Shown: positions 808-45,182, counted from the first letter of the stretch. The stretch: 64,000 nt of DNA from Schmidtea nova (GCA_044892505.1 CM097882.1:293632001-293696000), one strand, 5' to 3'. Translations and numbers: made by a program. The notes: generated by a model from the letters alone, not told the origin.

Positions 808-1866
808 CAAGGATTCGGAGCGGAGCGGAGCCCGGAGCCCTGTGCGGCTCCGGAGCGGATAATTTGCTTGGAGTAAAGAGCGGAGCAGTGAGTAAAAAAA
901 TTAGAAGGAGCGGAGCGGTTCCGCTCCGCGGTTCCGTTCCGCTCCACATTTTTTTAAAATTTCTTTTCGAAAACGAATGTAGTGTCAGTTTTGGAAAATT
1001 AGTGTAAGTTTTGTTATTTAGGTATCAATTCAAAATTTTTCTTGCCGGGAAAATGAAAAGTTTGCATGTTGGGTCCAAGGTATATAGATTGTTGGGATCT
1101 AAGTTTGTGTTGATGTGTCAAATAACAGCTAATTATAATCTGAAAATTTAAATGTTTTGATTTATATATATTTTGTTTAATTCAGTTTGAGAATTTTAAA
1201 TTATTTACTGTTTGTCTTTTTAAATAATAATATCCTTGGGTAAGTAAGTTTATCATTATCCTCTTGATATTTAGTTTCATTATTCTTCACTTTTCTTTAT
1301 AGGAAAAATATATGAATAATATAAAACATAAAAGTTATTGATACATATATATTTACATGAATTTATATGTAATGTGTAATGTGAGACACAAAGTTTAAAT
1401 AAATTAAAATTAAGAAGTTAAAATAAAGGTAAATTTAAATTAGTTATTTATTTATACTTTTACTATATTTTCATAAGTTTTTATATTTTGTTGGGCCCGC
1501 CAAATCACCTAAAAACACAATAAAACGAACAAAAGCATGAAACAATAAAGAAATAATAAAAATAAAAATAGCAAGAAAAACAAATTAAAAATAACAATAA
1601 AACGACAAATAATAATTGATAAATTTTCAGTAAAAGGAAATTTTGAAAATAAACCGGTAAACAACCGCAAAAGGGGGCCTGAAATAAGAAAAAATAGAAT
1701 TAAATAAAATAATAGTACAAATAATTAATTAATTACTTGGAAAATCAGGACCACCCAGCGAGAAACCGGAAAAGGAAACAAAATAATGTTTAGATTAGAA
1801 TAAAATAATAAAAATACTTTGATGGACGGCCTGATCCTGATTGGTCAATCCAACCAGACGGATCAG

Positions 1867-1874
1867 TATAAATA
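1867..1874 (+). promoter_or_regulatory. Candidate LTR TATA box (TATAAATA), with a candidate splice donor at 2002 (GAA|GTAATT)
   Basis: The same TATAAATA lies ~400 nt into the A LTR (38890-38897, minus), followed ~100 nt later by AG|GTAAAT (38789). Confidence 0.55.
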
Positions 1875-2995
1875 CCGATCCAAAAATCACAGACAGAGAC
1901 GTTTTACATTTTCACTCACAATCAAGACTAAACTTTGATTTGAGTAATAATTTTTGAAAGAACCGAACTTCATACAAGGAACCACACATTCAAGTACGGA
2001 AGTAATTTTTTTATGTTATCTTATATGATGTACCATGATTTTTATTTAATTAAAAGTTTATATGTAAACGTTATTTTATTTTTTCATTGATTATTTTTAT
2101 TGACACTTTAATGCATATAGCTATACTTCCTATGCTGCTCACGCGGCGAGGGAGTCCGAGTCGTCGTCGTGGGGCCTCAGGGTCTCACATGGCGGTTCAA
2201 CCTTTTTATTGTTTCTGGTTTTCATATTTAATTTGGTAGTTGAAATAATTAAATTACATCATTCAAATTTAACTAGATATTTATCAGCGAGATTAGAGAA
2301 TTTTAATGCTTATTTAGTCGAGTAAAATTTTCAGTCACAGAATATCGATAATGCGAATACGTCCAGACAGTTTTCTGGCGATAAGTAAAAAGTCATCATT
2401 TAGTTGCACAGAGGACGAGTGTCGAGGGCTAAATAGGGAGAGTAGCTGGGTAATGGGAGACACCCCAGGGTAGGGTGTATTCAGCATCATAACGCATAGA
2501 AAAATGAGCCTAATTTGAACCTCCAGCATGGAGAATAATGATAAATAAATAAAACTAATTCATATAATTTCGATAAAATGGAAAATTTCAATGAAGGTTA
2601 AAGTCCGATTTCATTCGGAATTAGTATCTCACCTACAGCGTCACCCGATCGATAAATACCGATCGCATTGGAATGCGACGGAGAATCCACATCAAGTCAT
2701 GAAACTCTAAAAATAGACCGATCGTCGTACATGGCGCGGATATCTAATTTATCTTCCGATCGCTGTATATAGCGCGGAGAATTTTCGAATAAATTTTATA
2801 TTTTCCTTACTGCTGTACATAGCACAGGATTAATTATGAACTCTTTATTCCGACCATGGTAGATCACGGCGGAGAGAAAGAAAATTTACCTTATTATTTT
2901 TAAGTAACTTTTGTGATTATATACAGTATAATTAAATTATCAACGAATTTTCCCCCCTTAACTCAGATATTTTATATCCAATAAATGTAATATAG

Positions 2996-3475
2996 ATGTC
3001 GACAGCTGAACTTATAAATCGATTGACTCAACTACGGAATATGGAACAAGTGAATCTGCGAAATGGAAATATCTCGCAGCTCAAGGATCTACCAGCATCG
3101 ATATTGCGGACCCTCAACTGCCAAATGTATAAGTGGCGACAGGGGTTTGGCCGAAAATGCCCGTTCTCGATATGGACAGGAGGGCACGACCAAATATTCT
3201 ATCGAGGAGGACCGAACTGGCCGATTTCTCAAAGGCCGTACTCGAACAAATTTGGCCGCCTTGTCGTACTGATCAAGGACACCGATGGACGGACAAGCCG
3301 TGTAATTTATTGGGGGCATATCCCTCGTCGGGAACTATGCCAACTAGGCCTACACGAATTCCTGCCACGAAAACCGTTCGGCAAGGAGTGCCAGAAAGGA
3401 CAACCCTCATTCTCTTGGGCTCGTCTCCGTCAGAAACCGATTAACAGCGAACTGCATAGCCTGTTTCGGAGATAA
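2996..3475 (+). CDS. LTR-encoded ORF1, unknown function (159 aa)
   Basis: ATG directly after a TAG acceptor-like site. Segment IKDTDGRTSRVIYWGHIPRRELCQLG aligns with FLDEQNRPRWLLSTGMMSGRALHQLG in the A LTR ORF 37174-37806. Confidence 0.6.
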   Translation: MSTAELINRLTQLRNMEQVNLRNGNISQLKDLPASILRTLNCQMYKWRQGFGRKCPFSIWTGGHDQIFYRGGPNWPISQRPYSNKFGRLVVLIKDTDGRTSRVIYWGHIPRRELCQLGLHEFLPRKPFGKECQKGQPSFSWARLRQKPINSELHSLFRR

Positions 3476-3661
3476 GAACTGATTGTCAAATCTTTAAAAG
3501 TTGTGATTAAATATTAATATTCAGCAGTGTTTTTGTTTTGTTGTTTGGAGTTTTAGTATTGTGTTTTTAATAATTCATATTCGTGACCTAATAATCCTAT
3601 GATCAGATTTTAAATTTCATATAATTAAATCATAGAGTAAATATCCTAAATAAATTATAGA

Positions 3662-4258
3662 ATGAATCCCGATTTGATGCAGAGAGAATTAGAAAAGATG
3701 TGGCGGATTCGGAGGGCCCAGGACAAGGAAGTGGGTCTCCTCAAGGCACAATTGATCAAAGCAGAGGCACAGATTGCATATTTGCGCAAAAGCTGGTTTG
3801 CTCCGGCCCGAATGAAGGAGCAAATCAGTAAAACCGAGCGCGCCCAACAGACTGCAGCCGAGTACCAAATGGAATGGGAGGCTACAAAGATAGAACTCCG
3901 AAAATGCCTCCATTCCGTAACTGCCTCATATATTGAGAGGGAGCTCAGAGAGCAAATCCGTCCAGTTACGTACCAAGCTTGGACATCAGAGAAGAAGACT
4001 TTGAATTCCATTGGTACGGATGTCGCAGATCTAATCGAAAATCGGAATGAGACAGCTCCTGCAGTAAATTCAACCACCTCATCGGTAAATGCGCACCAGA
4101 AACGCAAGCGCATTGGGCAGAAACGGCGGAGACAGAGAAAATTATTTGCCCAGCAATTACAAAGCCAAGTCGATGGTCTACATCAGATGACTGAGGAGGC
4201 ATTATTGACAGAGATTTTTCCTCCGGCGGGAGTTTTTACCGAACTCATTAAAAATTAA
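3662..4258 (+). CDS. LTR-encoded ORF2, coiled-coil plus basic NLS-like motif (198 aa)
   Basis: Homologous to A LTR ORF 36422-36985 (WFAPARMK/WFNPERVK; KRKRIGQKRRRQR/KRRNRLGAKKRRERR). Confidence 0.75.
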   Translation: MNPDLMQRELEKMWRIRRAQDKEVGLLKAQLIKAEAQIAYLRKSWFAPARMKEQISKTERAQQTAAEYQMEWEATKIELRKCLHSVTASYIERELREQIRPVTYQAWTSEKKTLNSIGTDVADLIENRNETAPAVNSTTSSVNAHQKRKRIGQKRRRQRKLFAQQLQSQVDGLHQMTEEALLTEIFPPAGVFTELIKN

Positions 4259-4498
4259 ATAAATTGTTGTATTGGCTTAAGAATTTTATCGTTCATTTAA
4301 ATTGATTTAATTAGCTTTACCAATGATTAGGTAAAGATAGAACAAAAGTATAAATTCATTTTACAAAATATCGAATAGAGATAATTAAATAATTAAGCGA
4401 GCATTCGTTGAAACACTTCTCGCAGACTGAGCAATAATAAAATTAAATTTTCTGAAAGATTAACGCGGAATACATAAGTAGATGATTAAAGCATAAGT

Positions 4499-4640
4499 CC
4501 TTCTAACGGCAGCGATGAACCCGTGAACATAAATGGGGAGTAGTACTAGCGATAGTGCTCACCTGCCCATCATTGTTCAACCACCCTGCGCATCACCAAC
4601 TTGATTATATAGGGAAATAATCAAGGGCGCTTGAGTGTAG
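4499..4640 (+). other. Conserved structured RNA element near the LTR 3' end (U5-like)
   Basis: Blocks CCTTCTA(A/T)CGG, G(A/G)ACCC and GCTCAC, a GNRA hairpin and an AA-bulged hairpin with a TAGGGA loop recur with compensatory changes at 36127-36257(-) and 55565-55697(-), and partly at 55331-55460(+). Confidence 0.65.
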
Positions 4641-4732
4641 AATTGCAATTTTATGCATGATCATGGATGGGGGATCCCTAGTCATTGTTAGAGCATTTTT
4701 CATCTAACCCCTCCATGAACCCAGCATAAATT

Positions 4733-4750
4733 TGGGGGCTCAGCCGGGAT
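4733..4750 (+). other. Primer-binding site, tRNA-Pro type
   Basis: TGGGGGCTCAGCCGGGAT versus the canonical Pro PBS TGGGGGCTCGTCCGGGAT; 6-nt TAAATT spacer after the LTR. Confidence 0.85.
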
Positions 4751-5067: not shown

Positions 5068-5529
5068 ATGGAGGAAAAACTGAAAGAAATTGAAGAATTT
5101 CTCAACACAGAAAGCGAAACATTAGAAACGATTGGCAAGAAAATAAACCGATTTAGAGAGACTGAATTTCAGGAACCCACAACACAGACTGAAGAGACGG
5201 ATGAGTTAATAAAGATAACAGAAAGAACAGGTAAAATCGACATAAAGACCCGCTACAAATGGTACAGAGCACGATTAGAAAATGCAGAACTAAACATTAA
5301 GTGCAGGCAAATAGAACAACGATTAACCCCAACATACAATCGATGGAGGGCGCAGGGGGTAGAAGCAGCGAAAAAATACCGACAGTGCTATATATGTGAG
5401 GATAGGGAGATACAAATTATGTTTTTACCTTGCGGACATTTTCGTTTTTGTAAAATATGTGCCAGCAAGCGCGACCTATGTCCTATGTGCAACCTGATGA
5501 TAGACGATAAAATTATTGTATATTTATAG
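5068..5529 (+). CDS. Leader ORF with C-terminal C3HC4 RING of IAP-like type (153 aa)
   Basis: CYICEDREIQIMFLPCGHFRFCKICASKRDLCPMC...KIIVYL at the extreme C-terminus. No BIR domain seen. Homologue in A at 35025-35483. Confidence 0.85.
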   Translation: MEEKLKEIEEFLNTESETLETIGKKINRFRETEFQEPTTQTEETDELIKITERTGKIDIKTRYKWYRARLENAELNIKCRQIEQRLTPTYNRWRAQGVEAAKKYRQCYICEDREIQIMFLPCGHFRFCKICASKRDLCPMCNLMIDDKIIVYL

Positions 5530-6240: not shown

Positions 6241-6293
6241 TTGAGGCCAATGAGCCTTATTGAATGACCTAGCTAGGCGTTATGGAGAGATTA

Positions 6294-6630: not shown

Positions 6631-7245
6631 CCATAGTGAATTATAGAGATATCCGGATAAATAGTAACAGGGGGAATATAGACCCATAGTGTAATCGTCG
6701 ACGAGATTTAGAGTAGTGCGCACTAGTAGTTAAGAGAATGCGAGTAAAGCTGATTATGCAACCTTAAGTAAAGCATGCAAGGAGAATAGTAAAAATTTGG
6801 GCTGACCGGAGCAACCGGCAGAATGAGTAAAACGATTGCTAACAGGGAATAATGAGTAGAGATGATAAAATAATGATAAACGAGTCAGAAAGACTCAGGG
6901 AATTAGAGCGCTCGAGCGACCAATAATTTGGGAAACTGTGGGAAAAGTAATCGATTTGATAAAACATAGATAATTATTACGACGTAAATAGATAATTGTG
7001 ACCAGTCTATAGATAATTTAAATAGACTAAAAATAAAGGGGAATCTGGGAATTGGGAGATAATGAAAACCCAGTAATAAGTAATCCCGAAAGAAAGGGAA
7101 TAAAAGCGCGACGATAACAATAATGTATCGTTGAGGACCTTTGTATTTTAGATATACAAATCAATCAAAGCAATCAATCAAACAAGAAGAATCAGAACAC
7201 GATAATAGATAGGACAAGAAAATTGATAATATAAAAGTAATCCAG

Positions 7246-10200
7246 TTGAGAAAAGGAGCAAAGAGTGTCGTAATAAAGCCAACGGAAAAGAAAGTCGGTA
7301 GCAACATTAACAAAAAAGACAAAACTAGTACTACAACAAAAAAGCAGAAAGCCGGCAAAGATAACCCACAAGGGAGTAAAGCGAGAAAAATAATAAGAGA
7401 TAAATCGATTATCGAAAACGATAAATTGTCAGTAGTAAGCAACAGTTCAAGTAACAAAGAAAACCAAGCAGAACCCAAAGAGAGCCAAACAAGTGAAATA
7501 GAAGTAGACGAAACTAATAACGATAATATAGAAGAATTAGAGAGTGAGGTAGAACAAGAAGTAGAAATCAACGAGAGCGATAACGATAGTATAATATCAG
7601 ATCACGAAGTAATAAGAGAAACAGAAAGTGATTCAAGCTCGAGTGGAACAGAAGACGAACATAACAACGAGTTAGAAACAAGAGGAAACGAAAGTAAAAT
7701 AACTCAAGACAGCGGAATCGAAATGAGCGAACCAAGAGAAGAAATAAAGGATAAATTTTCGGGAGAACCGTTTAACGGAGATGCGAGTAAATTAGAAATT
7801 TTTCTCAAGGAATTTGGCATATTCGTGGAAGTATGCAAATGGAAAGCTGAGACAACAGCAAGTAGAATACAGTTATATTTGAAAGAATGCGCATTGGACC
7901 TATATTTGGAAGCAAAAAACGGTACCAATCCACCTGCAGACTGGCCAGCGATAAAGGACTTTTTCCAACAAACATTTGGAATAAATAGAGTGCTGAGCGA
8001 AGCATTCATAGAATTTTCAATGAGAAAACAAAAGATGAATGAATCTAACGCGGTATACGCGAGCGAATTGAAAAAATTAGCAAAATCGGTATTCAAGGAT
8101 GGGAGTCCAATAAACGAGGAATTAATGGCAGCTATCTTCATAGGAGGATTAAGAAGACCCGACATAAGAGCGCAAGTAGGATGCCAAGGATGCAAAACCA
8201 TAGATCAAGCGTTAGAAACAGCTAACCGATTTGAATTGCATATGATAGGAAGCGAAGGCAGAATTTATTTAGCCATGGACACAGCACAAACCGAACCAGA
8301 AGTGAATCTCAACAATCACATTCCAAATTCGCAACAATTAAACCGACCACCCCCTCAACGAAGGAATGAAGGAAATAAAGTGCAGAACTTTGAAAATCAA
8401 AACAATTACAACCCTCAAAGACAAACAAAACAATGTAAAACATGCGGGAAGTTGGGACACTGGCAGCAAGAATGCTATCAAAATTTGAATTGCGGAAAAT
8501 GTGGAGTCAAAGGACACTCGGAAAGCAGATGTTCTACAATAATCTGTTTTAATTGCGGACGACCTGGTCACTATTCAAGAAATTGCGGACAAAAAAGTAA
8601 TCAACGAGGAAACTGGCAGAGTAATGGGAACCGACCAAATTACGGAAATCAAGCAAATACCGTAAACCGACCAGATTATGGGAACCAACAAGTCAATAAT
8701 AACAATAATCAGAACAAAACCACCCCCAAAGAAATACATTTAATGCAAGAAGTCCAAAGATTGACGGAACTTATAAACAATACGACGAGAGGAAATCCGC
8801 AAACCAATCAACAGCAAATTAGCATGATGAGAAAAATAGAAAGCGAAAACGAACGATTGAATCGAGAAAGTCAAGCACGACACGCTCAGGAATGGGCAAG
8901 AATACAAAGAGAGGATGAGCAAAAACAGCAAGAAAGAGAACGACAACCTCTAAGAATTAACATGCTAAGAGCAACAAACCAAACAGACACTCGCGAGAAA
9001 GAAACCACACTGGAAATGAATTCGATAGACCCAAATCCAGCCGACAACGAAAGTCGAAAAGAGATAGTACAAAAAGATGAAGAAGTAGAAAAAGAAACAA
9101 AAAAGGAAGTGGAAACCGAGATAAACCAGGAAGGGGGAAAGGAGATTTGGAAAAAAGGAATGATGGTAATCATGCCCAACGACCATATGTTTCGATTCCA
9201 ATATAACGCAAAAGAAAAGGTGGAAATACTGTTCAATAAAGTAAACCAGATGATTCCAGGAGTGACAAAACTGCCCAGAGAAGCGTTCTTACAAATAGGA
9301 GATGCACCATCAGTAAAATTGAAATTAACGGATATATGGGAAAACGTGGGAGTAACAGAGACAAAAAGAAATGTGATGAGAATTAAAGAAATAGAACCAG
9401 AAGAAATTCCACCACCAATACGTCACGAAACCCGAATCCGGCGAATATTTGAAGGAAAAATGATAAGAAGACGTTTAAAAGAGATAGACGAGTTGGGAAA
9501 GAAAATGGAAAAAGTCGAAGTAATAGAGGACAAGAGTGAACCAACACAAGAAATTGACAAAAACGAACCAGAACCAACGGAGAATATACAAGGAGAAACG
9601 AACCAAACAGCACATATTAATATGTTAAGAAATACCACCAGAGAGTTCTCCGATGAAGAAGAAGACAGTGACATCAGTAGCCTAGCAGGAGACATATTAA
9701 ATGAATCCGAAGACGAAAATAAAGAGAGAGAAGTAATAAAGACCTCAGAACCTACACAGATAAAAGTAGATGAAATCCAGAAATTACTAGATAACTCACT
9801 AGAAGTAATATATAACGAAGAGTTCATGGACAAGAAACAATATCGGAAATTCATGAAAGCATTACTGCAAATGAACTACAAAGAATGGTTACAAGACCGG
9901 GAAGTAGACATGTTAAATCGATACGTAGGGAAATTAATAGAGGAACCACTTCTCAATTACACCATCTCAATAATAATAAATACATCAACACCAAGAATCT
10001 GGATCAAAACTCCATTCACAGATGATATCTACAGATGGGTAGAGGATAGACTAGGGAGCTCATATAAAAACAAATTCATCTATTCGCAGAATAGACTCGT
10101 AAAGAAAAGAACGCACTTAGTAGAAACAGGTATATGGCCAGGAGAAATAACTTTGTTATCAATATGTGATGAAAAGGAAGAAGAGAACCTACAAGAAGTT

Positions 10201-13200
10201 GCAAGGGAAGCAAACACGTGCTTCGAAAGGAGAATAAAACCTCGGTTAGAATACGAAAAAGAACGAGTCTTACGAAAGAATCTAAATTTCCTGATAGAAC
10301 AAATCATACCACAAGTCAAAAAACATAGAAAAGAATTAATGAGAAGCGAATACGAGAAATTGAAACGATGTATTGAGTGCATACGTGACACAAGCCACAC
10401 GAGATGGTCACAGATCTCACACGACAAATTAATCGCAAAAATGGGAAAAACAATGTTCAGGCAAGGGAAAATAACAGATCTAAAAATTTCAGTAGAATTA
10501 CCTAATGAGGACACCAAAGAAATTGAAGTGGTAGCGGATTGCACCATTAAAGAATTAATAAATGTCATCAACGAGACACTAGTGCAAAGAGAACCAGAAG
10601 ACGAATGGGAAGACGACATAATCATACAATACAACGAACACGTATTATGGGATCACGATGAGAGACGATTATATAAAATCGGTATATGGGATAATCACCA
10701 AACAATCCACGTTAGCAGAATGGACGATACACCCAGAGAAACTGCTAAAGATGAGAAAAGAGAACGGGAACGACGGAAAGAAGTTGTGCGTAAATTACAA
10801 CAAATAGTAGAAATTTATCGAAATTGGCGAATTTGGCCAGAGTGGGAAAATGTATTAGAACAACTCAACCTCAACAGACGAATACGAACACCCGTAGAGA
10901 AACAATGGAACGAGAAAGGAAAATGTTGGGAACCAAAAGAAGGGGAATATGAAGAAGAATATAAAAGAGGAATTGAAGATGACTGCGAACCAGAGATAGG
11001 AAGAGTTTGCATGGTAACAAGGAAAGCTACGCCAATAGACCTAGATGGACCAGAAACAGCGGCCATGTGGTTAGAAAGGGAAAAGCAAAAAACGGAAGAA
11101 TTTGTCGAAATATTAAAAACCAATGAGCACGGTAAGAGAAAATTAATAAAAGGCCTCGCAGATTTTTTCGTGGTAAATGGGGAAGATATAACATGCTTGC
11201 GTAAAGTAGCAAAAGCAATCGCGGAATATAAAAGAGTTAACGAGTGGTGTCCAGAACAACTAGACCACGTAATTAGGAAATGGAGAAATCAAGAATTCTC
11301 GCAAGAAATTCCACAGAAAGTACATTTAAGAATAATATATCCAAACAAGGATAAGGAAGAGCTTTGGGTAGGAATAGCAGAAAAAATTCGAGATATTAAA
11401 AAGAAATTGAGATACGAACCACCATTCCATTTACAACACCAAGGACGATCATTAGATAACAGTTTGGAAATCGGAATAACGCCAGCACAATTAGACCTCA
11501 TGAATACCTTGACAGTAGAAGCAATAGCGGGTCAACCATTGAAACGTAAAGAAGAAAACCATAAACCACACGGAAGTATAAGTACGCCAAGCCCGATGAA
11601 ATCAGTACTAACACCAGGGACAAGTTCAAGACGATCTGAGACAACACCCAGAGGAACCAGAGAAAGGACTCCACCACAACCATACGACGTGGACGAAATT
11701 TTAACGGATAGCGACGATATGATAGAAGAGTTAACCGAATTAACAAGGGAAAAGGACGATAACATTTTCGAAAGAATACAAGAACTACCTACGACAATAC
11801 AAGTAACCAACACCGGAGAAGCAGAAGTCGAAGAAGAAATAATAATAGAAGAAGTAAACGATCTAACAGAAGACGAAACGAGAGGAGCGAATGTCGAAAA
11901 TGTACAATTAACACAAGAAATGGAAAGATGGTTAGAAGAAAGAGCTAACGAACCAAGAGATGTCACCGAAGAAACCGGACGAGCAACAAGGTTTGTGGAA
12001 ATAGGTACAGGAATGGATAAACGACCTCGAGGTAGACCCAAGACAGACCCAGCAACAGTAGTTATCAGAAATAAGGACGAAAAGAGACAAGATCAATGGG
12101 AATTATGTTTAAAGAAATTAAACAAAATCGCAGAGATGAAAGAAAAAGAGACAACACCAATATGTCAAGGGGAGGAATGGATATCGAAAACAATAATGGA
12201 ACTATTGGCAATAATTGATCCGGAATTAAGAAAATACTGGCGTATAACGGAGATAAGCGAAAAGGCGAAGTCACTACACAGCGCAATCGCACCCATCTTA
12301 CCGGAATTCATAAAAGAGAAGACGAAATCAAATCACTTAGACTGGCAAGGAACCACTATGTTAATAAAGAAACTGACAGAAGGAGCGGAAACAGATAACA
12401 AATACGTAATAGCTATTGCATACACGATCTACAATCTGTTGACACTGAGTAGAGGTCGACCAAAACCCACTGCATTAGAGAGACATATAAAAAATACCGC
12501 AAAAATTATAGCGAGAGAAATAGAACCATACGTCATTAACAAAGGAGGATGGGAAACATTTATAAAAACTAACCAGAAGAAAACACAAGCCAAGAATATG
12601 AAAAAGAAATTCGAAAAAATATTGGAAGAGTTAGGAAAAGAACAAGCAGGAACAGGAAACGCAAAGTCATCAATGAATCTGAGTGCTATAATAATGATGA
12701 TGTTGATTTGGATGATTAGCACCGATAGCGCAACAGCATTCGAAGTGTTTGATTGCGACCAAATGAAGTTAGGAGAAAAGTATTCATTGAGAGGTACGGA
12801 GCAATGCAAAGATGCGACTCCAGTAGAGTTGCAAAAGATTAAAAAAGAACAATGGTACCACGTGTATCAAGAAGCAGAACTCATAAAGACAATGGTGAAT
12901 GAATGTAAAGTGCAGAAGACGAGATTCGCATTCTACTGCGGGAGAGGACATTATTCAGCAATTGTCATGCCAGGAACGGAAAGAGAACCAATCGTGTTAC
13001 AAGGAGAAGACTGCGAAGCACTGTTTAAACATGGAGAAGTAACAACAAGAGATAAAATCAAGATAAGAGGAAAGCCAGGAATGATGATGCAACAGACGTA
13101 CTATGTAGCAGGACGGATTACGGGAGGAGAAGGATATTGTCAAGGAGAAACCTACCCGATATTCGGAGTACCCGCAACCAACCTAGTAGTAATGGATACG

Positions 13201-16200
13201 TATATAGTCGAATTAAAAAGCTATGAAGCATTCTTCGAACCAACAACGGGAGAAATGAAAACGTTATCCATGTGTAAAATCGACAGGAGCATGTGTCAAA
13301 CGGGAATGTCAACATTGGTATACAAACCAAAGGTGAACGAATGTCAATTACAACTGCTACAAGGAGCACAGTTCGACGAAATCCAAGGAAAAACGTTTCA
13401 GGAAGAAGACGACGACGACAAAGCTAGAGCAAAGCATCTCAAGGAAGCTTTAGAGAATAAAAGACAACTGAAACCAGATCATAGAGAAAAACGAATAGAG
13501 ATGAGAGCCACACCAACAGTATTGATAACCACAAATCAAGATGTGGGAATGAGGTTCATAAAAGGAAAAGCAACCCTCAAGTGTAGTACAACGGTATACG
13601 AAACAAATTACCCAGGAATATATGTGTCAAAACAAGAAGTGCCAAACGCGAAACCCAAAATCGACACAATGGATATCAAACTACACCTATATGTGAATAA
13701 TAAAATGGATTTCCTATTCCATAGAGGACAAGCCTCATTACAAAAAGTGTACTACGATCTGATAAACAATGATTGTATACTGAATCGAGAAATATTAAAG
13801 ACGAAGTTGGCCGTAGCGATTACGAATCCAGATAGCGCGATGCCATTATTACCACTGAGAGAAGGACATTTCGGAAGAGTGGTCGGAGAAGCAATGTACG
13901 TATACATTTGCGAAAAAACACACGCGTCGCTAGCAGCAACAACACAGTTGAAACCTGGAACCTGTACAAATGAGTTGGAAATCGATTACAAAGGAAAAGT
14001 ACGATACGTTCAACCGGTGACGAGAATCATCAATCCACCAGGGTTTGAACCAAATCCATTCAACTGTAGTAATGCGTACGGACCGCTCTATCAGAAACCA
14101 GATGGTAAATGGGTTATGTTCCCAGGAAGATCCGAAGTGATAGCACCAAGAGAATTCGAGCTAATGCAATTGTCAAAGGATAGGCAATTCAGCGACGTAG
14201 ATGTCTCAAACAACGGAATATATAGTCCAAAGGATCTAGAAGCAGCAAGGCAGAATATATTATTCCCGGCAAGAAGAGAAGCATTACTGTCAAATATCGT
14301 AACGATAACGGGAGGAACGAATTATCAAGAAGGACCGAATTATGAACTGTTATTGTCACCAGCACATTTCAAGAAAGCCACAGAAAATATGATGAAAGCA
14401 ATGTGGGGAAGATTTCTGATATTCGGACAAATGATGGCTGGAATACTGGGGGTTATATTAATAATACAAATCGTCAGAGTGATAATAACGCAAATGTTAG
14501 CGTGTTTTGACATCTACAAGAGAGAAAAGAAAGTGAATTGGAAAATGGTAGTAGGGTTTTTACCATTCCTCGCGAAGACGATGGTGTTGCACGGACACTC
14601 AAAGGACATACATCGAATAAAGAGATTGTTGAAGATACTCGCAAAAATGAAGGGAACAGATGAAGAAGTAGGACGAAAATTTAAAAAGATAATGGATGAC
14701 GAACAAGCAAGACAACAGCTCAAGAGAGAAAGAAAAGGTTTATGGGAGAGGATGAAAGGATATAAAACCCAAAATGATTCGAGTGACGACGACGATGACG
14801 ATGACGACTATAAGGGAGGACAAGTGTATAAGAACCAAGCACCACAATACATCGAAAAGAATCCAGCCGACGCATGGAAATGTTACGCACCTCCACCAAC
14901 CATGTATCAAGAACCACTACAAGGAGGAAAAAATAGCACGATGCAAATGATGCCAATGACAAATGTATACCCCATGATACCAGAAGATTATAAAATGAGA
15001 AGATGTAGAAGCGTAGATCCACAAGGAGATACACACACGATCGCAGTAATGTCATCAAACACAGGTCCAGTGTTAACCACGACAATAGAAATTAACGGAA
15101 GAGAAATCGAAGCAATGATCGACACGGGAGCAAACATTTCCGCCATCGACATCAAATGGATACCACAAGAGCAAAGACGAGAAATAGAAAGGACAAACGT
15201 CCACGTAATTGCATGTAGCAAAGAAGTTGTAGAAGTAGCAGGAAGATGGTGGGTAAAAATACGCCACCTAAACACGGAAATCGATACATACGTAGCAGTT
15301 ATACCAGCATTAAGCGTACCTTGCATTATCGGAACAGATTTGATGCCAGCATTATTTAAAGAGATTGTAATCGACCTCGGAACAATGAGACTAAAGGATC
15401 GCACAGGACAAATATGCGCAATAGAAGCCAAAGTGACAAGTTCAAAGCAAATGATAATACCCGCAAGAAAGGAAAAAATATGTTACGTAAAAATAGATCC
15501 GACAATCCAAGGGGATATGATTTTCGAACCAAGTAAGAGATTCGAGAAAAGAAAAGCGTTGCCAATGGCAAGAGGACTAGTTAACATAAACGATGATGGA
15601 GAAATCCCAATAAACGTAGTAAACTTCGATGAAGAGGACAAAATAATATACGAAAACGAAAGATTAGGTAAATTAACCCCAATGATGGATATCGAACTAC
15701 CAATAGAAGGGGCAGAGAAAGATAAAGAACCAACCTGGAATATTGATAGTGAATTATTAAATGAGGATCAAAGGAAGCAGCTAGAAAAACTCCTGATAGA
15801 GTATAAGGATATATTTGCAGCATCCGATTTAGATCTAGGAACATGTGATGTCACACTACATACAATACCATTAACAGATGAAACACCAATTGCATTAAGG
15901 CCGTACAAATTAGCGGAAGCACAGAAAGCAGTAGCAGAAGCAGAAGTGAAGAAAATGTTGGATGCAGAAGTAATCGAACCAAGTTGTTCACCCTGGCAAT
16001 TTCCAGTGGTAATGGTAAAGAAAAAAGACGGAACACAGAGATTCTGCATAGACTATCGAAGATTGAATACAGTGACAAAAAGGGATACTTACCCATTACC
16101 AGACATTAATGAAATGCTATTAACATTACAAGGAGCAGCATATTTTACGTCGTTAGATCTGAAAAGCGGATATTGGCAAATAAAAATGAAGGAAGAAGAT

Positions 16201-19200
16201 AAGGAGAAAACTGCCTTTACCATCGGTAGAGACCTATATCAATTTCGAAAGATGCCATTTGGATTAACGAACGCACCAGCATCATTTCAGAGATGCATGA
16301 ATTTCGTCACCCACGGAATAAAGCAGTGCATGGTCTACATCGACGACTTATTGATTTACTCTAGTACATTCGAACAACACATACAGGATATTCGAGATGT
16401 ATTCGTTAGGCTTAGACAATGGAAGTTAAAACTCAAGCCATCAAAATGCGATTGGGCGAAAGAGAAAGTAACATTTTTAGGACATATAGTGTCAGCAAAA
16501 GGAAAAGAACCGGATCCTAGAAATATCGACAAAGTAAAGGAATGTCCAGTACCAAAAACAATAACCCAGATACAAGAATTTCTTGGACTATGTGGATATT
16601 ATAGAAAGTTTATAAAAGATTACGCCGGAATAGCAAAACCTATACAGGAACTAGTAAAGAAAGATGTATCCTTCATATGGGGAGATGAACAACAAACAGC
16701 ATTCGAGACATTAAGAGATAAACTGATAACCGCACCCATATTGGTACACCCAGACTTTAAGAAGCCATTCCTACTTGCAACGGATGCAAGTGGATATGCA
16801 GCAGGAGCAGTATTAGGGCAATACGATGATGAAGGAAAAGAACGCGTAATCGGATATTATAGCCGGACATTCAAAAAGCATGAGAAAAATTACTCAGTAA
16901 CAGAACGGGAAGCATTAGCAATTATATTAGCTATTAAACACTTTAAATATTTACTATGGGGTCACATCATCTGCATAACAACAGATCACCAACCGCTTGT
17001 ATGGTTAGGACAGCACAAGGAAACATCCAGTAGATTAATGCGATGGGCAATGCAGTTACAGGAGTACTCACCAGACATAAAATTTAAATCAGGACGAGCG
17101 AATGCGAATGCAGATTGTATGTCAAGACTGACATTTCCAGAACTAACCGATCCTGATGTACAACGAATTTGTGTATTAATAGCGGAGGATCTAGATTTTA
17201 GCGAGCTTAAGAAAGATCAACAAGAAGACAAAGAATTGGGACAGATCATAGAGTTCCTAACGTCTCGAAATATGGAGGTATTTAAGGATAATAAGGAATT
17301 AAAGGAACATATAGGAAAATATCAACATCGCTACATAATAAATAAAGGATGGTTATTAATACAAGACGGGGAAAAGAGATTGATGTGTTTACCGGAAAAC
17401 AGAAGGAAAGAGATAATGATCCAATACCATGATGGGAAATTGGGAGGTCATATGTCCGAGAAAAAGACCATAAACCGTATGAGACAAAAATATTATTGGC
17501 GAACAATGGAAGAAGATATAAAGGAATGGATTAAAAATTGTCTAACTTGCGCAACCAGAAAGGATAGTGGGAAGAAATGGAAGAACCCGCTACAACCAAT
17601 GCCGATACCAGCAGAGCCAATGACAACTATAGCAATGGACGTAATAGGACCATTACCAGAAAGTTTAAACGGAAATATTTATATATTGGTGATAACGGAT
17701 TATCTGACAAAATTCCCGGAAGCATTTGCCATGCAAGACCAAAAAGCAAAAACCGTAGCAAAGATTCTAGTAGAAGACATATGTTGCAGATACGGAACTC
17801 CAAAACAAATACTCACAGACCAAGGAACTAATTTTATGAGCGAGTTATTGAACGAGGTGACAAACTATTTCCGAATAGCAAAATTGAGAACTTCACCATA
17901 TCACCCGCAAACGAATGGACAAACGGAGCGATTCAACGGCACATTGATTAGAATGTTATCAAACTACGTCAGCAGACACCAAACTGACTGGGATGAATAC
18001 ATAAAATTATGTTTAATGGCATACCGAATGTCGATACATGCAGCAACAAAACTAAGCCCATTTCAACTTATGTATGGAAGAGAATGCAACATGCCCATAG
18101 ATTTAGAGTATCAGCCACCATTATCGCAATATATGGAAGATGACGACTACGTAACCAAATTCAAGGAAAGGATGCAGGAAATATGGAAAACGGCAGAACT
18201 CAACATTAAATTTTATCAGGAAAGTTATAAGGATTTACACGACCAGAAGAAAAATGTTAAAGCGAACGATCTAAAACCAGGAGATTGGGTGATAATAGAA
18301 ACTCCCGAAATAATACCCGGAACTGTTAAGAAACTCCAAAGACCTGGAAGAGGACCTTATGAAATTATATACAAGAAGGACAATAATGTCAAAGTTAAGC
18401 TAATAAATCGACCGTTAATACGACCCATATATGTAAACACCTGCAGATGTAAGAAGGTGCCTAAAACGATAACTACAACACCAGAAAATCGAATAATAAC
18501 TAGATCACAAACAGCCAGGATAAATATGCTCAGAGCTAACGCAACTAAAGGCGACAAAGCAGAAATAAGACAAAAGGAAATCAGAAATAAAGAAATCATA
18601 TTGAAGGCGAGAGAGATAATGGGAAGATGGCATGTTAGAGACGAAGCAGGCATATCAAGGGATATTAGACATATAATTAGCCGTTACGCACAAGGATTAC
18701 CAACCGAACCAATTATTTCTGAATTATTGGAAAAAATCCCTGAAATACTCTTATTGAAAGATGTAGGAGGACAACCAGCCTTACATAATGCGATAGAGTG
18801 TAAAAACATTGAAAGAGCAAAAGAATTCCTAAAAATCGCAAAAGAAACAAATCAAAACTTGGACGTAGGGAATCGGAAACAAGAAACTCCATTAATGACA
18901 GCCGCAATCCACCAAGCAGATAAAGAAATGATAGACCTATTGATAAAAGCTCATTTCAGTTGGACAGAACGAGATAGAGAGGACAAAACAGTGCTAAATC
19001 ACGTAATATGGAGTTCTCACCAACCAATGCTGAAATACATAATAGCTAACTCCACTTGGGAGATAGACGAACTAGTTAAAGGAGACATTATCAAAGAGGC
19101 AATCAAAATTGGTAAATGCAACACGATCCGTAAGTTAATCAAATGGAAACGACCAGAAGATGATACATGGGTCTTAGACATAAACGAAGTATACAGCGAA

Positions 19201-22200
19201 GGACAAAACGCACTGTTAAGATACCTTTTGAAATTTACTTGTGATCAAAAGACATTACTAACCTTATTAGACAGAGGAAACATAAACATCACAAAGAATG
19301 AAGAAGAATACAAATTCGATAAAGAGAAGGAAGCCTTATTCAATAAGATTAGGAAATGGTGTGCGAAACCACTTGATAAACTAATAACATACAAAGACAT
19401 AAGCAATTTTAACGAGAAATACCAGACGATAGTAAGCGAATATGAGGAATTAGTAAAAATCTTAAACCATCCCGAAAAATGCAAACAGGTTTTAGAGAAA
19501 AAAGAAAGAGAAAGTAACAAGAAACTCACACCACTCTTCAAAGCAGAAGCACCATACCAAGCTAGACTAGATGCGATACAAGAAAAAGCAAAAGAATTGT
19601 TACCGGAATTCGAGAATAGTAAACATGCACTGGAAATACTCGGCGCATTAGTTGAAAAAGTACACGCATACGCAAAAGGAACATACAATGGTAACGACAT
19701 AGTAATAATAAAAAAGGAGATGCCAGTAACATTCCTATTACCAAAAGACGGAATAATGCCCATACATAGAGCTCTACGAAATGGCAAAGATAGGAAAGTA
19801 ATGGAAATTGCAAGAGTAATGCTAAATTGCGGAAGCAATATGAATATGATAGACGAGAAAGGAGATACACTTATGGTATTTGCAGCAAGGGCCAAAACGA
19901 AAACAAAGGTATTAGAAGAACTATACAAAGCAGGTGCAGGACTTACAGGAAAGACAGATAAAGATAATTCGATATTGGATGTAGCATTATTAACACACAA
20001 TTGGGAAATGGTCAATTTCATTAAAACCGTCCCAAATCAGGAAGAAATAGATCACCTAACTGATACGGTCAAGAAACCCAGTGTACTAGCAATGATGAAC
20101 AACGTCGAACTAACAGAATCAATACTTACGTGGATAAATCCTAATACTAACGAACCAGCATTCAGGATTAATAAGTTTACAGAACATAACCAAAACTGGT
20201 GTATAAGAAGTGCCTTAATAACGTATAAATGGCCAGAGATATTGAAGATGTTTATGGAAAGAAAGGATCTAAGAATCACAACCAGCCCGAAAGAAGAAAA
20301 ATACACAGGCAAATGGAAAGAATTGATGAAGACATACATCAACAATTGGATCAAGGCCAAAAAGGAAATCTTGGAACATAAATCCACTAACAAAGTAATA
20401 CCGGAGCAGGTAGAAACACAAGAATTTGAGGCAAGTAATCTAACGACATTAGCGTATGCGAAACTAATAGAAGAAATCAATGTCGAGGACGACATTTTCG
20501 ACGAGCCAGGGGGAGATGACAACACAGATAGTGACGACGATAACAACTCAGAAAATTCAAGCGATCACGAACCACCCGATAAAGAGGATAACGAGAGAAA
20601 AGACAAGAAACGAGACAAAGAAGAAAAGAAAAATGAAGACGAAAAACAAAAAGATGAAGATGGAGAACAAGGAAAAAACGACCAAGGAAATAAAAATGAC
20701 ACCCAAAGAACAGGGTATAAGTCAACCATAAAACCATTCTTCAAACCAGAATTACTATTACTAACAATGATTATAACGTTAATTAATCCAAGTCAGGGAA
20801 TGACATGTGAAGAAAGGGCAATAATACAAATAAAAAACGCGAAAGGAATCGAACGAGTATGTTGGTCGAAAAAGGACAAAACTACGGAACAAAATAGCCC
20901 GATGGATTGCAGAATCTCAAAACACGAGCAAGAGATCATAGAGATCAACGACCTAGATCTAGATACCTGGTACAAAATATGCACCGTTAGGAAACAAAAG
21001 CATCCAAGATCACACAACACAATCGCATGTGCAAAATACCAAACACCTAAAGCAGCCATGACAATACAACAGTCACCCAAAGGAGATTACATCATCGGAA
21101 AATGTGGAAGAACAGAGACACAGGGAACAGAAAACAAAAAACCCCAGGCAATAGATAAGCAAACAACACCAACCCTACGAATTACAATAGAGAGGCCCGA
21201 AACAAGAATTGCCACAAACGAAACCGAAAGAGTGTCTTACCAAATGGAAGTATTATGCTTAGCACTCATACTAATAATGATAAAACGATTAAAGGAAGGA
21301 ATAGAAATTGAAACTATGACAATAACAGAAGTAGAAGATACACAGAATACTAACATAAAATGTTGGGCGAGGAATAACGAGGAAATCGGCGTAAATGAAA
21401 TAAGGAAAAGTCGAAAACCAACAACGAATAAAGTAATTAAAGTATCCAAAGTAAAAGCAGATAAGACGTACAAACTATGCCTACTAGAAAAAGAGACAAA
21501 CAAGAAAGGTACCACAAAATGTAAAACATTTCAACCCGGAGAAGTAATAAAGTTCAGAAGGAGAACGAGGAAGAGAAATAAACAAATCAAGCGGAAAGTA
21601 AACATAACATTAGAAATAAAAGAGATAGAACCAAATGTGAAAGGAGTATGCTGGAGGAAGTACGAAAAGGAAACAAATAAAAGAACGACACCACAATGTC
21701 AAACAAGCACAGGAGCAACAACGATACAAATAAAAGGTCTAGAAAGTAAACAAACCTACGAAATATGTTTGGTAAAGAAAAATGATCAGATAACGATAAA
21801 CGACCTAGAATGCGGAATACATACAACTTCATCCGGAACAAGAACCAAAACGTTAACACGGAAAAATAAAAGGAAACAACGAAACAAAGAAAAACCGAAG
21901 TACACCACTACCTTTAAAAACAATAAACAACCAATAAGCCAGGAAGCTACGACAAAACCCGAGGGAAAGACATCAGCAACTCTAACATTATGGAAAATAG
22001 AGAATAAAACATTAGAAATATGTTGGATAATAGTTCAGAAACATATAAGAAGACAATCAAGAGAGTGCAGAAAAACAAATAAAGAAATCAAGATCGAAAA
22101 ACTACAATTTAATAGCGAGTATGAAGTATGTACAATAGAAAAAACGGACGCACTAGGAAACCAACAAGAAAGATGCGAAACCTACTATACACCAGCGAAC

Positions 22201-24314: not shown

Positions 24315-24671
24315 ATGACCGAACAGGACGAAACAACTGAAATAACTATGGCTATGAGATGGAAGGCACAATGTGATTTATTAGTACGAACAGTCAACTC
24401 ATTACAGAACCAATTAGCGGAAAGACAAATGTTATTATCAGAAAGTTATAACAATTGTTTCGAACAATTACACAGAATAGAGGAACAACAAAGAGCGATA
24501 ACTGAACTCACCAGAGAAAATCAAACGATAAACAACACCAATCAAAGACAAGCAATAGAAATAAACCATTTAACACGAGGAGAAAGAGAAGGATCCGAAG
24601 AAGGATGGATGAGTTGGGTAATAAATAGATTAAACAACGAAGCGGAACCAGATTCAACGAATGAGCCATAG
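24315..24671 (+). CDS. Accessory coiled-coil ORF (118 aa), unknown function
   Basis: ATG 3 nt after TTTAG; heptad-rich; same codon style as the polyprotein. Confidence 0.7.
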   Translation: MTEQDETTEITMAMRWKAQCDLLVRTVNSLQNQLAERQMLLSESYNNCFEQLHRIEEQQRAITELTRENQTINNTNQRQAIEINHLTRGEREGSEEGWMSWVINRLNNEAEPDSTNEP

Positions 24672-24763
24672 ATAAATAAAGCGGAAAATTGTAAATATGT
24701 AAAAATAAAAACAAGAAAAACCAAAAATAAATGACAAGTCGAATGTATATATTATTGTAGAAA

Positions 24764-26140
24764 ATGGACAGAGAAGAACGAATAATCGAAATTTTGAGAC
24801 TAGAAAACAGAAAATGGAGTAAGAGGCTCACATGCGGGAAGTGTAACAATTTATTACGAGAACCCAGACAAACGATATGTGGATGTAGAATATGTACAAA
24901 ATGTATACAAGAATTGGATGCAACAGGAATAACAACATGCCCAGAATGTAAAGAAGGAGGAATAGTGTTGGACGAAACCAGAACGGACAAAGCAACCCAA
25001 AGAGAAATTATGAGCACCACAACGGAGTGCGTAAATACACCTTGTACATGGCAAGGACAAATAAGTAATCTGGAAAACCATATGGAAAAATGCGAGGAAA
25101 AGAGAGCCGAATGCGAGAAATGCCAACAGACAATAACTCTAAAGAAGAGAGAACAACACAAGGAAGAATGTAAAGAAGAAGAAATCGCATGCGAGTATTG
25201 TGAAGCCCGAGAAACAAGGAGAAAAATCGAAGAAGAACACTTGAATATAACAGAGGAGAAAGTATGCGGACAATATGTAAGTAAATGTCCAAACAATTGT
25301 GAAATAACAGAAGAAATAAAATTACATGAACATTGGAAACTATGTACCGAAAGGCCAAGAGAATGCCCATATAACAAGCATGGATGCAAGGAAAAGCGGA
25401 CGCGAAAAACAATGCAACAACATCTAGAAGAAGCAGCACTAACGCATGTGGAAATGACAAACGAAACGACTAAAGAAACGGAACGGACAATTCAGAAATT
25501 AGAAAAAGAAGTAGAATCACATAAAATAATGATGAGTTTACTACTAGAAACAAGAGAGCAGTTTGAACTAACTCGCGAAAGAATGGAAAAGAAAATAATA
25601 GCCATAGAAGAATTAGGAAAAGGAATGAAAATACAATATAATCAATTAATACGAGAAATTGACGAAAGAATGGACTTACCAATCGCACCTTACCTATGGA
25701 AAGTAACAGATTTCAGAGACAAATTAGCAGAAGCCAGAAATATGACGAAAACAGCAGTAATAAGCCCACCATTTTATTTATGGAAAAACGGGGTTAAAAT
25801 AAGATTGAAAGTATACCCAAATGGAGACGGAAGAGGACAAGGAACACACGTGTCAATATTCTTCTCACTATGTAAAGGAGAATACGATGACCTAATAGAA
25901 TGGCCCTTGAAAATAGGAGTCATTATAAGAATCAAAAGTACGGGAGAACCAGTAGAAAAGTTCTTTGAAACAGACAAACATTCGAGTACGAGCGAAAAGC
26001 CAACGACAGAATGCGGACTAGCAGCAGGAGAACCAATGTTTATAAGGAAAGAAAACCTATGGGAGCAACTATATGCAGACACGCTATACATAGAGATGGA
26101 GAGGCATGAGAAAGCAGACAGAAAAGGATGGTTGGCGTAA
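24764..26140 (+). CDS. Full-length intronless TRAF-family protein (RING, TRAF zinc fingers, coiled coil, MATH)
   Basis: CGKCNNLLREPRQTICGCRICTKC..CPEC; CPYNKHGC..MQQHLEE; YLWKVTDF..SPPFY..LKVYPNGDGRGQGTHVSIFFSLCKGEYDDLIEWP. Confidence 0.95.
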   Translation: MDREERIIEILRLENRKWSKRLTCGKCNNLLREPRQTICGCRICTKCIQELDATGITTCPECKEGGIVLDETRTDKATQREIMSTTTECVNTPCTWQGQISNLENHMEKCEEKRAECEKCQQTITLKKREQHKEECKEEEIACEYCEARETRRKIEEEHLNITEEKVCGQYVSKCPNNCEITEEIKLHEHWKLCTERPRECPYNKHGCKEKRTRKTMQQHLEEAALTHVEMTNETTKETERTIQKLEKEVESHKIMMSLLLETREQFELTRERMEKKIIAIEELGKGMKIQYNQLIREIDERMDLPIAPYLWKVTDFRDKLAEARNMTKTAVISPPFYLWKNGVKIRLKVYPNGDGRGQGTHVSIFFSLCKGEYDDLIEWPLKIGVIIRIKSTGEPVEKFFETDKHSSTSEKPTTECGLAAGEPMFIRKENLWEQLYADTLYIEMERHEKADRKGWLA

Positions 26141-26253
26141 TGAAGGAAGTAACCATGTAAATAAAATGTATAGAAACAATATGAATTAACAAATAATCAA
26201 AAACAATAAAAAATAAAAAATGATTAAATATTCTTTTATCTGTAATTATAGAA

Positions 26254-27315
26254 ATGGGAAATATAGAAGTAACCTTACAAGAAGTAACAGTACATCAAGA
26301 CGAAATGATCAGAAATCACATGGAGCGGATTGGGATATGGATTCATGCCTATTATCGAAAACAGGAGGAATTGGAAAGACAAACCCAAGCACTAAGAGAA
26401 GCCGAGAAAACGAATCAAAGAAGTCGAGAAAAAATAGAAGAAGTCTACAAACTGCTAAGGCAACAAAATGAATACTACAAAGAGATGATGAAAGAGCGAC
26501 GAGAGGATAGAGATAGACAACAGATAAAAACCGACCATAAGATTCAGTCAATCACAGAACAAGCAAGATATTGGAAGAAAGAGGCAAAAGACTCTTACAA
26601 GGAAGCAAGGGAGATAATAGAACGAACAGCGTACAGCGATGATTGGAAACTGTTTAAAGAGATCGATGAATTAAAAGAGGAATTAGGGCAAAAGATCAGT
26701 CAAGAAGCGTCAAATAAAGTATGGAGTAAGAAAAGACAACAATTTATCAGAGAACAAGCCAAGAAAATAAAAGAATTAACTTATCAAGTACAAAGAATGG
26801 GAGAAGATTTAGCCAATCAAGAACAATTAAAAGGTATGCTGACCGGAATGTGGAATCACAAGGAAGAAAACATGAAAAGAGACATAAATGGATATCAAGG
26901 AGTGATCACCCAGAAGAAAATAGAATTAAAAAGAACTAAAGAAAGAATGGAAGAAACGAGGCAGAATTATGAAGAGAACATAACAAATTTGACAAAAGAA
27001 AACGAAGAACTGAGAAAGAAGTTGGCAGAAAAACCAACACCAATAAAAGAAACAAGTATCACAGCAGCAGTGACCGAAATGATGGAGAAGGAAGAGAGAG
27101 AGAGAAAATTGGCAGAACTAGAAAAACAAATTGAAACCCTAACAGAACAGGCGAACTATCTGGAATACTTATTAGATGAAGAGATCCAGATATCCCACAC
27201 ATACCGAGAAGAAGTCGAAATGTGGAGGAGCACGGTAATATGGATGCCACTCCCCATAAATCAGGTGGAACCTCAAGACGAAGGTTTTTACGAACCCAAC
27301 GAAACCCTTGTATAA
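26254..27315 (+). CDS. Accessory long coiled-coil ORF (353 aa), unknown function
   Basis: ATG after TATAG|AA; charged helical heptads throughout. Confidence 0.75.
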   Translation: MGNIEVTLQEVTVHQDEMIRNHMERIGIWIHAYYRKQEELERQTQALREAEKTNQRSREKIEEVYKLLRQQNEYYKEMMKERREDRDRQQIKTDHKIQSITEQARYWKKEAKDSYKEAREIIERTAYSDDWKLFKEIDELKEELGQKISQEASNKVWSKKRQQFIREQAKKIKELTYQVQRMGEDLANQEQLKGMLTGMWNHKEENMKRDINGYQGVITQKKIELKRTKERMEETRQNYEENITNLTKENEELRKKLAEKPTPIKETSITAAVTEMMEKEERERKLAELEKQIETLTEQANYLEYLLDEEIQISHTYREEVEMWRSTVIWMPLPINQVEPQDEGFYEPNETLV

Positions 27316-27390
27316 ATGTGCGAAAACCAAGTGTAAATAAATTATGTAAAATAAAAAGTGTCAAGCTGTATTGACCGATGTATAAAAGAA

Positions 27391-31403: not shown

Positions 31404-31428
31404 ATTTAAATAATTTTCTTTACATAGA

Positions 31429-45179: not shown

Positions 45180-45182
45180 AAA

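Follow-up and report, generated by a model that had tools for sequence, protein, structure and literature searches.

Two putative genes within the long terminal repeat of a Burro-like gypsy element of Schmidtea nova

Genomic context and structure of the element

The window analyzed, a stretch of 64,000 nt from Schmidtea nova (GCA_044892505.1, CM097882.1:293632001-293696000), contains an intact Burro-like gypsy element of 29,915 nt (element B; window 1489-31403, plus strand) whose long terminal repeats (LTRs) carry two open reading frames, ORF1 and ORF2, and on the minus strand a diverged relative (element A) whose 5' LTR carries the same pair (Table 1). The LTRs of element B (3238 and 3239 nt) show 4 differences between them, begin with TG and end with CA, and the element is flanked at both sides by a 4-bp target duplication, ATTT. 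Element A shares its primer site with B and retains a RING ORF and the start of gag. The 18-mer at the primer site is one that we take to resemble a tRNA-Pro primer-binding site, and in both families a 6-nt gap separates it from the LTR end (4727-4732 in B). A plain polypurine tract is absent before the 3' LTR of B, where just a short G/C-rich stretch was seen (28125-28164).

Table 1. Features of elements A and B, in window coordinates (LTR positions, marked +, are counted from the LTR start)
Feature	Position	Strand	Description
Element B 5' LTR	1489..4726	+	3238 nt, TG...CA
Candidate promoter	1840..1874	+	inverted CCAAT box and TATAAATA, 27 nt apart (LTR +352, +379)
Candidate splice donor(s), weak	1994..2007	+	LTR +506/+514 (A: +508)
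ORF1 (B)	2996..3475	+	159 aa, orphan; TAG immediately before ATG
Candidate poly(A) signal with GU-rich downstream element	3506..3560	+	past ORF1; rank 1/177
ORF2 (B)	3662..4258	+	198 aa; predicted coiled coil, linker, basic helix, short hydrophobic helix
Candidate poly(A) signals at ORF2 stop	4247..4300	+	best hexamer rank 3/177; stop-overlapping AATAAA scores lower
Putative conserved structured RNA, LTR 3' end	4495..4660	+	GNRA-capped hairpin
Primer-binding-site-like 18-mer	4733..4750	+	identical in A; 6 nt past LTR
RING-finger accessory ORF, 5' leader	5068..5529	+	45% identity to A copy (35483-35025, -)
Conserved candidate splice acceptor	7122..7151	+	571 nt (A: 568 nt) before gag ATG; 0/500 shuffles
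Polyprotein	7723..24189	+	5488 aa; CCHC knuckles, fusion glycoprotein (env), protease, RT, RNase H, integrase, ankyrin repeats
Four 3' accessory ORFs	24315..27960	+	118, 458 (TRAF/MATH), 353 and 189 aa; spacers 75-125 nt
Element B 3' LTR	28165..31403	+	second copies: ORF1 29673-30152, ORF2 30339-30935
Element A 5' LTR	39296-36037	-	3260 nt; A is a diverged relative of B
ORF1 (A)	37806-37174	-	210 aa; CAG 9 nt before ATG; AATAAA 40 nt past stop
ORF2 (A)	36985-36422	-	187 aa from homologous ATG; CAG 2 nt before ATG; AATAAA at stop

Element B very probably represents a new Burro-like family. Burro/GYPSM1 elements, giant gypsy-like elements of planarians, are described as ~30 kb long with an internal region of up to 25 kb and long LTRs (PMC6431247), and the corresponding values in element B are 29.9 kb, 23.4 kb and 3.2 kb. 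Planarian Burro elements carry env between gag and pol, within a single polyprotein of ~5000 aa in which env precedes PR-RT-RH-IN (PMC6431247), and in the 5488-aa polyprotein of B the fusion glycoprotein likewise precedes the protease. Further points of likeness are the ankyrin repeats, the RING and TRAF/MATH cargo, the presence of tandem repeats and a flatworm host (PMC6431247). Pfam identified Ank_2 in the polyprotein of B (E=6.5e-12) and MATH_2 (E=6.1e-21) in an ORF separate from it, and this separate 3' TRAF/MATH ORF differs from the published Burro arrangement (PMC6431247). BIR, Bcl-2-like, ubiquitin-like and dUTPase-like domains had no Pfam match in B, and some of the published Burro calls were made with HHpred (PMC6431247).

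Several further observations concern the internal regions. According to Pfam the RING ORF, located between the primer site and gag, encodes a RING alone, without a BIR; in B and A it is possibly related to the B-IAP reported for Burro1, and a homologue search accepted 0 of 22 candidates. Downstream of the RING ORF and ahead of gag, the leader contains tandem arrays at the same position in both families, built from unrelated units of 29 and 32 nt in B (6006-6634) and of 19, 36 and 85 nt in A (32966-34316). The gag frame is open without an ATG for ~170 codons in B (7212-7722, +) and ~150 in A (32451-32005, -) upstream of the first ATG, which suggests an N-terminal extension from a non-AUG or spliced-in start. 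For the ~1700 residues past the ankyrin repeats (window ~19000-24189) Pfam gave only a weak Fn3-like match (E=0.097), and several hydrophobic segments and cysteine-spaced repeats were noted there by eye.

Two open reading frames within the LTR

Relative to the LTR start, ORF1 and ORF2 begin at +1508 and +2174 in B and at +1491 and +2312 in A, the start codon of A ORF2 having been chosen by homology, and the spacers between them are nearly equal in the two families (186 vs 188 nt). A first-pass annotation had placed ORF1 and then ORF2 in both B LTRs and in the A LTR, and this order and the coordinates in B were confirmed. All three LTRs carry both ORFs; the two B LTRs are one recent duplication, their copies of ORF2 differing by one amino acid and one silent change, so the conservation claimed across three LTRs amounts to a comparison of two independent sequences. 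The length of the ORFs is not attributable to chance, because dinucleotide shuffling of the whole LTR produced even one ORF this long in only 1/2000 (B) and 0/2000 (A) cases, and two such ORFs in 0/2000.

The conserved motifs that had been attributed to both ORFs proved firm for ORF2 and marginal for ORF1. Comparison of ORF2 between B and A by BLASTP yielded 46/150 identical residues (31%, E=2e-19), with a score of 184 in the coding frame pair vs at most 42 in the other 17 pairs, 0/1000 shuffles as good and an hhalign figure of 97.8%. The corresponding values for ORF1 were E=0.014 with 20/95 identical residues (9/1000 shuffles as good) and an hhalign figure of 19% with E=0.0012 (0/100 shuffles). 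The two ORF1 copies were reciprocal best matches among 116 window segments by a small margin (48 vs 45 and 41), tblastn at E<=0.05 missed the similarity, and the global identity of 0.23 was no better than that of codon-shuffled controls (mean 0.24). Equal position and equal flanking signals favor homology of ORF1, making it likely, short of proof.

The DNA between the ORFs had been described as diverged, which agrees with our comparison of 16 LTR chunks of 200 nt, where strong alignment was found only at the LTR end (z=18), the most conserved segment of the LTR. Aligning the two LTRs globally at the DNA level broke down, and that alignment was discarded. Synonymous sites are saturated (pS 0.76-0.83), so selection is not measurable from the A/B pair and the pN/pS values of 0.63 and 0.76 (control means 0.71 and 0.70) are uninformative. 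ORF1 and ORF2 have diverged faster between the families (21-31% identity) than RING (45%) or Gag (63%). Base composition differs as well, with 47-53% GC and 26-34% adenine in the LTR ORFs vs 36-40% GC and 41-47% adenine in the internal genes; the adenine bias ends at the promoter and reappears in the interior of the element. An overlapping 95-aa frame (3157-3444) had no counterpart in A and no Pfam match and was set aside.

Database searches were conducted for both proteins. An ORF2 alignment compared with a set of 5.8 billion sequences, at lengths of 102-347 only, returned 0/1718 candidates at E<=0.01, and an ORF1 profile compared with 1.84 billion representatives returned two matches, both long tandem-repeat proteins (8 and 11 stretches) that were rejected as summed noise. 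Exact look-ups found 0/10, Pfam offered no credible family for whole ORF1 or whole ORF2, and a PDB sequence search gave no match for ORF2; the match of ORF1 to DOT1L in that search (E about 0.6) was rejected. The sequence comparisons support the view that both ORFs behave like genes.

Candidate promoter and layout of the LTR

The candidate TATA box that had been suggested near +380 was found as TATAAATA at +379 in B and at +400 in A, where it is preceded by an inverted CCAAT box (+373) at the same spacing as in B. In windows chosen by the analysts, conservation of this block was equaled in 0/500 shuffles vs 259/500 for a rival TATA region near +2860, where TATA-like motifs occur at +2861 in B and from +2867 to +2881 in A. 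Furthermore, the AT skew drops in both LTRs from 0.36-0.53 to ~0 past +400. The promoter is thus most likely the block at +380/+400, which would place both genes downstream of it, in R/U5, and would give R and U5 together a length of about 2.8 kb; the very long R/U5 implied by the first-pass annotation is supported to this extent. Such a length is far beyond the 15-250 nt given for retroviral R (PMC12789967). The LTR comparison found no conserved enhancer repeats 5' of ORF1, and an internal promoter therefore lacks support. If the promoter call is right, it follows logically that solo LTRs would leave functional genes behind.

Candidate RNA processing signals

A YAG (CAG or TAG) resembling a splice acceptor lies within 3 nt of the ATG in 8/10 accessory ORFs, compared with 14/178 control ORFs and 10/172 AT-matched ATGs, the A and B signals being homologous so that the ten ORFs represent about seven independent cases. 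For the four LTR ORFs the distances are 0, 1, 9 and 2 nt. Candidate acceptors in B end at window positions 2995, 3660, 5064 and 7151, and others precede the 3' ORFs. No ATG lies between the candidate acceptor upstream of gag and the gag ATG. Donor-like sites number 5 and 8 per LTR by the pattern used, and conservation of the candidate donor block was not beyond chance (474/500 shuffles). After the inferred start, 22-24 ATGs precede ORF1, 31-43 precede ORF2 and 93-151 precede gag, which makes scanning of an unspliced RNA implausible.

All 177 sense AATAAA/ATTAAA hexamers were ranked by GU-rich downstream content, a score devised after the sequence had been read, and the top five were, in order, those at the ends of B ORF1, A ORF2, B ORF2, A ORF1 and A RING. 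In B the hexamers past ORF1 and at the ORF2 stop lie at LTR +2018 and +2759/2770. The score of the LTR ORF ends was reached by 0/108 internal hexamers of B; the end of B RING ranked 51/177 and that of TRAF 96, and two ORFs were without a hexamer. Plain hexamer presence at ORF ends was not significant relative to AT-rich windows (p=0.06).

Predicted structures of ORF1 and ORF2

The first-pass annotation had described a coiled coil and a KR-rich patch in ORF2, and both were recovered. In the single-chain model (pLDDT 70, pTM 0.25) long helices lead into a flexible linker (127-145) and then a basic helix (147-160), with K/R at 10/14 and 9/14 residues of the basic patch in the two copies. In the two-copy model of ORF2, residues 3-89 of the chains pair in register as a coiled coil (score 0.57, compared with 0.00 for the best of 3 controls), and homodimer runs agreed in at least 86% of contacts with a partner pLDDT of at least 61, a mark for dimers that was reached by 21/30 microbial and 7/16 animal homodimers and by 0/23 and 0/30 single chains. 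ORF2 is accordingly described as a predicted coiled-coil homodimer, for which binding is supported, short of demonstration. Its C-terminal helix appeared amphipathic by eye. Fold searches with ORF2 returned generic helices only (best Z 7.6). An arginine-rich basic motif combined with self-association, as in Rev/Rex/CERV-type proteins, is present in ORF2 by prediction, and the searches found no sequence or fold link to CERV or Rev. From its predicted anatomy ORF2 may be a regulator, as had been proposed; the basic patch may also be only a nuclear localization signal (NLS).

ORF1 is basic and was modeled poorly (pLDDT 41), with a core of one helix, three strands and a second helix. Its fold searches reached a best Z of 4.3 with none at E<=0.001, and a double-stranded RNA-binding domain, which the topology might suggest, had no match among the listed folds.

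A structured RNA at the LTR end

Near the LTR 3' end the two families appear to share a folded RNA, located between the candidate ORF2 poly(A) site and the primer site, a position that would confine it to long unspliced RNA. Its two-sequence fold energy was reached by 0/300 column shuffles and compensatory changes occur at 7/30 pairs (5/300 shuffles), three of these pairs lying in a hairpin that is capped in both families by a GNRA loop; folding of the opposite strand was less favorable. Rfam gave no match at the gathering threshold, only three sub-threshold rows. Ribozyme topologies were weighed by eye and dropped. Judging by position, the RNA would suit a response element and, equally, a packaging or priming structure.

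Proposed mechanism and alternatives

We propose that the LTR carries an early-gene cassette, comprising intact ORFs, a start near +410, short RNAs and the need for a switch, and that ORF2 regulates the element's own expression by one route or another. Taken as a whole, this proposal has in our estimation an even chance of being right; the LTR architecture within it is probable, and the specific Rev- or CERV-like route, the likeliest for ORF2, is tentative, its main rivals being binding to DNA and action on the host.

Each of the ORFs has stayed intact in two families between which the DNA can no longer be aligned, with ORF2 conserved as a protein and ORF1 probably so. Transcription would, with rather good probability, begin near LTR +410, with both genes downstream of the start. 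The 22-43 upstream ATGs would probably block scanning, each gene being read instead from a processed mRNA in which the leader is spliced to the acceptor just 5' of the ATG and the RNA ends at the poly(A) site after the stop. Such short RNAs would be the default output of any LTR, whether 5', 3' or solo. Genomic RNA would have to pass both poly(A) sites and retain all introns, and so would need a switch. Much more tentatively, that switch may be ORF2, a presumed nuclear coiled-coil dimer whose arginine-rich helix would bind the folded LTR-end RNA, which would be missing from the short RNAs, and promote read-through or export in the manner of Rev or Cer1 CERV. ORF1 would most likely be a fast-evolving partner or host-interaction protein. 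In its fullest form the model comprises a two-gene LTR unit in a 2.8-kb R/U5, an orphan switch acting on LTR-end RNA to yield full-length RNA, and eight or so genes expressed from one transcript via alternative acceptors, possibly with the host spliced leader; this entire combination is rather unlikely. If it is true, each solo LTR would be an expressed mini-operon, activating or interfering with full-length copies in trans.

The cassette and the accessory ORFs could instead be operon-like and resolved by spliced-leader (SL) trans-splicing rather than in cis, which we hold to be possible rather than probable and which is compatible with the explanation preferred here. Same-strand ORF gaps of 186/188 nt in the LTRs and of 75-125 nt elsewhere are shorter than the 300 nt taken as an operon threshold in flatworms, and Schmidtea is reported to carry out SL trans-splicing (PMC12582326). 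A Cer1 mRNA is SL1 trans-spliced (PMC3315495), host CCT4 groups with flatworms, acceptors occur 0-3 nt from the ATG, and the donor is poorly conserved. Donor-like sites do exist, however, at +506 to +514 in both LTRs, and cis and trans acceptors are often shared and inseparable by sequence alone (PMC12582326). Both cis-splicing from the LTR leader and SL trans-splicing would fit the signals found.

With the same genes in the same position, ORF2 may alternatively be a DNA-binding, bZIP-like transactivator or a mimic of a host transcription factor, of the Tax, Tas or HBZ kind, with no RNA switch. The C-terminal 60 aa of A ORF2, a segment excised and picked by eye, matched Pfam bZIP_1 (PF00170) with E=0.0028 and 18.2 bits, which is below the cut-off of 27.6. 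In both copies, as in bZIP proteins, a basic helix is followed by spaced hydrophobic residues, and the protein is a predicted dimer. The B segment and the whole proteins had no bZIP_1 match, however, the zipper would be short, and the predicted dimer interface is the separate N-terminal coiled coil (residues 3-89) rather than the helix after the basic region. A DNA-binding role may be about as open as a regulator role, and we consider this particular alternative rather unlikely.

Equally unlikely in our judgment is a host-directed action of the ORF1 and ORF2 proteins, whether in anti-silencing, in apoptosis or in immune control, in place of one on the element's own RNA. Their divergence, faster than that of RING and Gag, resembles that of conflict genes, apoptosis and ubiquitin domains are frequent in Burro cargo (PMC6431247), and RNAi against smedwi-2 de-represses BURRO1 (PMC8532177); in neither ORF, however, was a host-derived domain or fold detected, in contrast to the RING and TRAF cargo.

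A further alternative places the genes in a long U3 like that of MMTV sag, with the promoter near +2860-2880 and the folded RNA in an ordinary 350-nt R/U5. This layout would follow the TATA-like motifs of that region in B and A, would agree with known LTR genes, which sit in U3 (PMC12789967), and would need no 2.8-kb strong-stop DNA. It is nonetheless improbable, as the rival block is not conserved beyond shuffles and has no CCAAT partner at equal spacing, and it would leave no R, because the best poly(A) sites lie upstream of the rival TATA and those downstream score 0-4 and are not shared.

That the ORFs are untranslated by-products or decaying captured genes, as the absence of homologues found outside the window, the marginal similarity of ORF1 and the differing GC content of LTR ORFs and internal genes might suggest, is highly improbable given ORFs intact in both families although synonymous sites are saturated, similarity confined to the coding frame and processing signals at both ends.

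Comparison with known systems

The proposed early-gene cassette resembles several known systems in part. The regulator bel of foamy viruses overlaps the LTR, and the first-pass annotation had drawn an analogy to it and to sag (MMTV) and nef (HIV-1). The analogy stands in that all are LTR-overlapping genes, and sag and nef, like the ORFs as proposed here, are expressed from spliced RNA (PMC12789967). It does not extend to position, since sag and nef occupy U3, ahead of the transcription start, and it is their 3' LTR copy that is expressed (PMC12789967), whereas here two whole genes, with their own candidate poly(A) sites, are apparently downstream of the start and would be read first from the 5' LTR. 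Foamy virus LTRs are also similar in having a splice donor in R upstream of the poly(A) site, with 5' polyadenylation to be suppressed, but their R is short, without genes, and has one poly(A) site (PMC3694450), compared with two or three over 2.4 kb here.

For ORF2 the closest parallel is CERV of Cer1, a gypsy element of C. elegans. CERV is made from a spliced mRNA, export of the genomic RNA depends on it, and it is predicted to contain a leucine zipper and an NLS (PMC10309623). Like CERV and Rev, ORF2 would be an accessory nuclear protein from a processed RNA, with a predicted dimerization helix and a basic NLS, facing the problem of exporting unspliced RNA; CERV differs in sharing exons with Gag and in not being LTR-encoded (PMC10309623).

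Protein coding within LTRs is already known for U3 (PMC12789967). No report of two entire genes situated in R/U5 and accompanied by processing signals of their own was found in the literature covered on Burro and on genes in LTRs, outside which lie the main Burro papers (Grohme 2018, Lee 2026), so that prior annotation is possible. The text of PMC6431247, Fig. 2A aside, describes Burro with no mention of genes inside the LTR in the part drawn on, and the corresponding parts of PMC8532177, PMC11410931, PMC10899757 and PMC13309565 contain nothing on LTR ORFs.

If the genes lie downstream of the start, the ~2.8-kb R/U5, a strong-stop DNA of equal length and poly(A) sites to override would all be unusual for retroelements. 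The early-gene cassette could explain how Gag and numerous accessory proteins are produced by a 30-kb element whose 6-kb leader contains 93 ATGs. Planarian genomes are rich in Burro elements (PMC6431247), and for one of these a protective effect on stem cells is reported (Lee 2026, via PMC13465017); the planarian proteome could therefore include an overlooked contribution from high-copy genes carried in LTRs.

Other elements and genes in the window

The elements are nested threefold (1-1488 and 31404-32004): a small element, which we take to be hAT-like (GGAGC-rich ends, 8-bp duplication), interrupts the gag of A (32004-31759, resuming at 806 downward), and element B is inserted into it. A third, decayed element (40600-45280, -) contains gag, a Bcl-2-like stretch noted by eye and a fusion-glycoprotein fragment and has a different primer site, before which lies an 89-nt block (45271-45183) whose ends are inverted 10-mers. 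Two repeats (51264-51827 and 56434-57009), 69% identical to each other, share their first 9-mer with the LTRs of A and B and are possibly LTR remnants of another family. Fragments in 39330-40709, 46126-48572 and 57600-64000 resemble, by eye, a Penelope-type RT/GIY-YIG element, Tc1/mariner transposases and two more gypsy elements, and pol similarity was seen as well. The host gene CCT4 (49056-50830, -) has three short introns of 47-51 nt and at most 66% identity to any database protein. Among 28 named references of 120 matches, a set with no triclads, it groups on a long branch with 8 parasitic flatworms (support 100/99).
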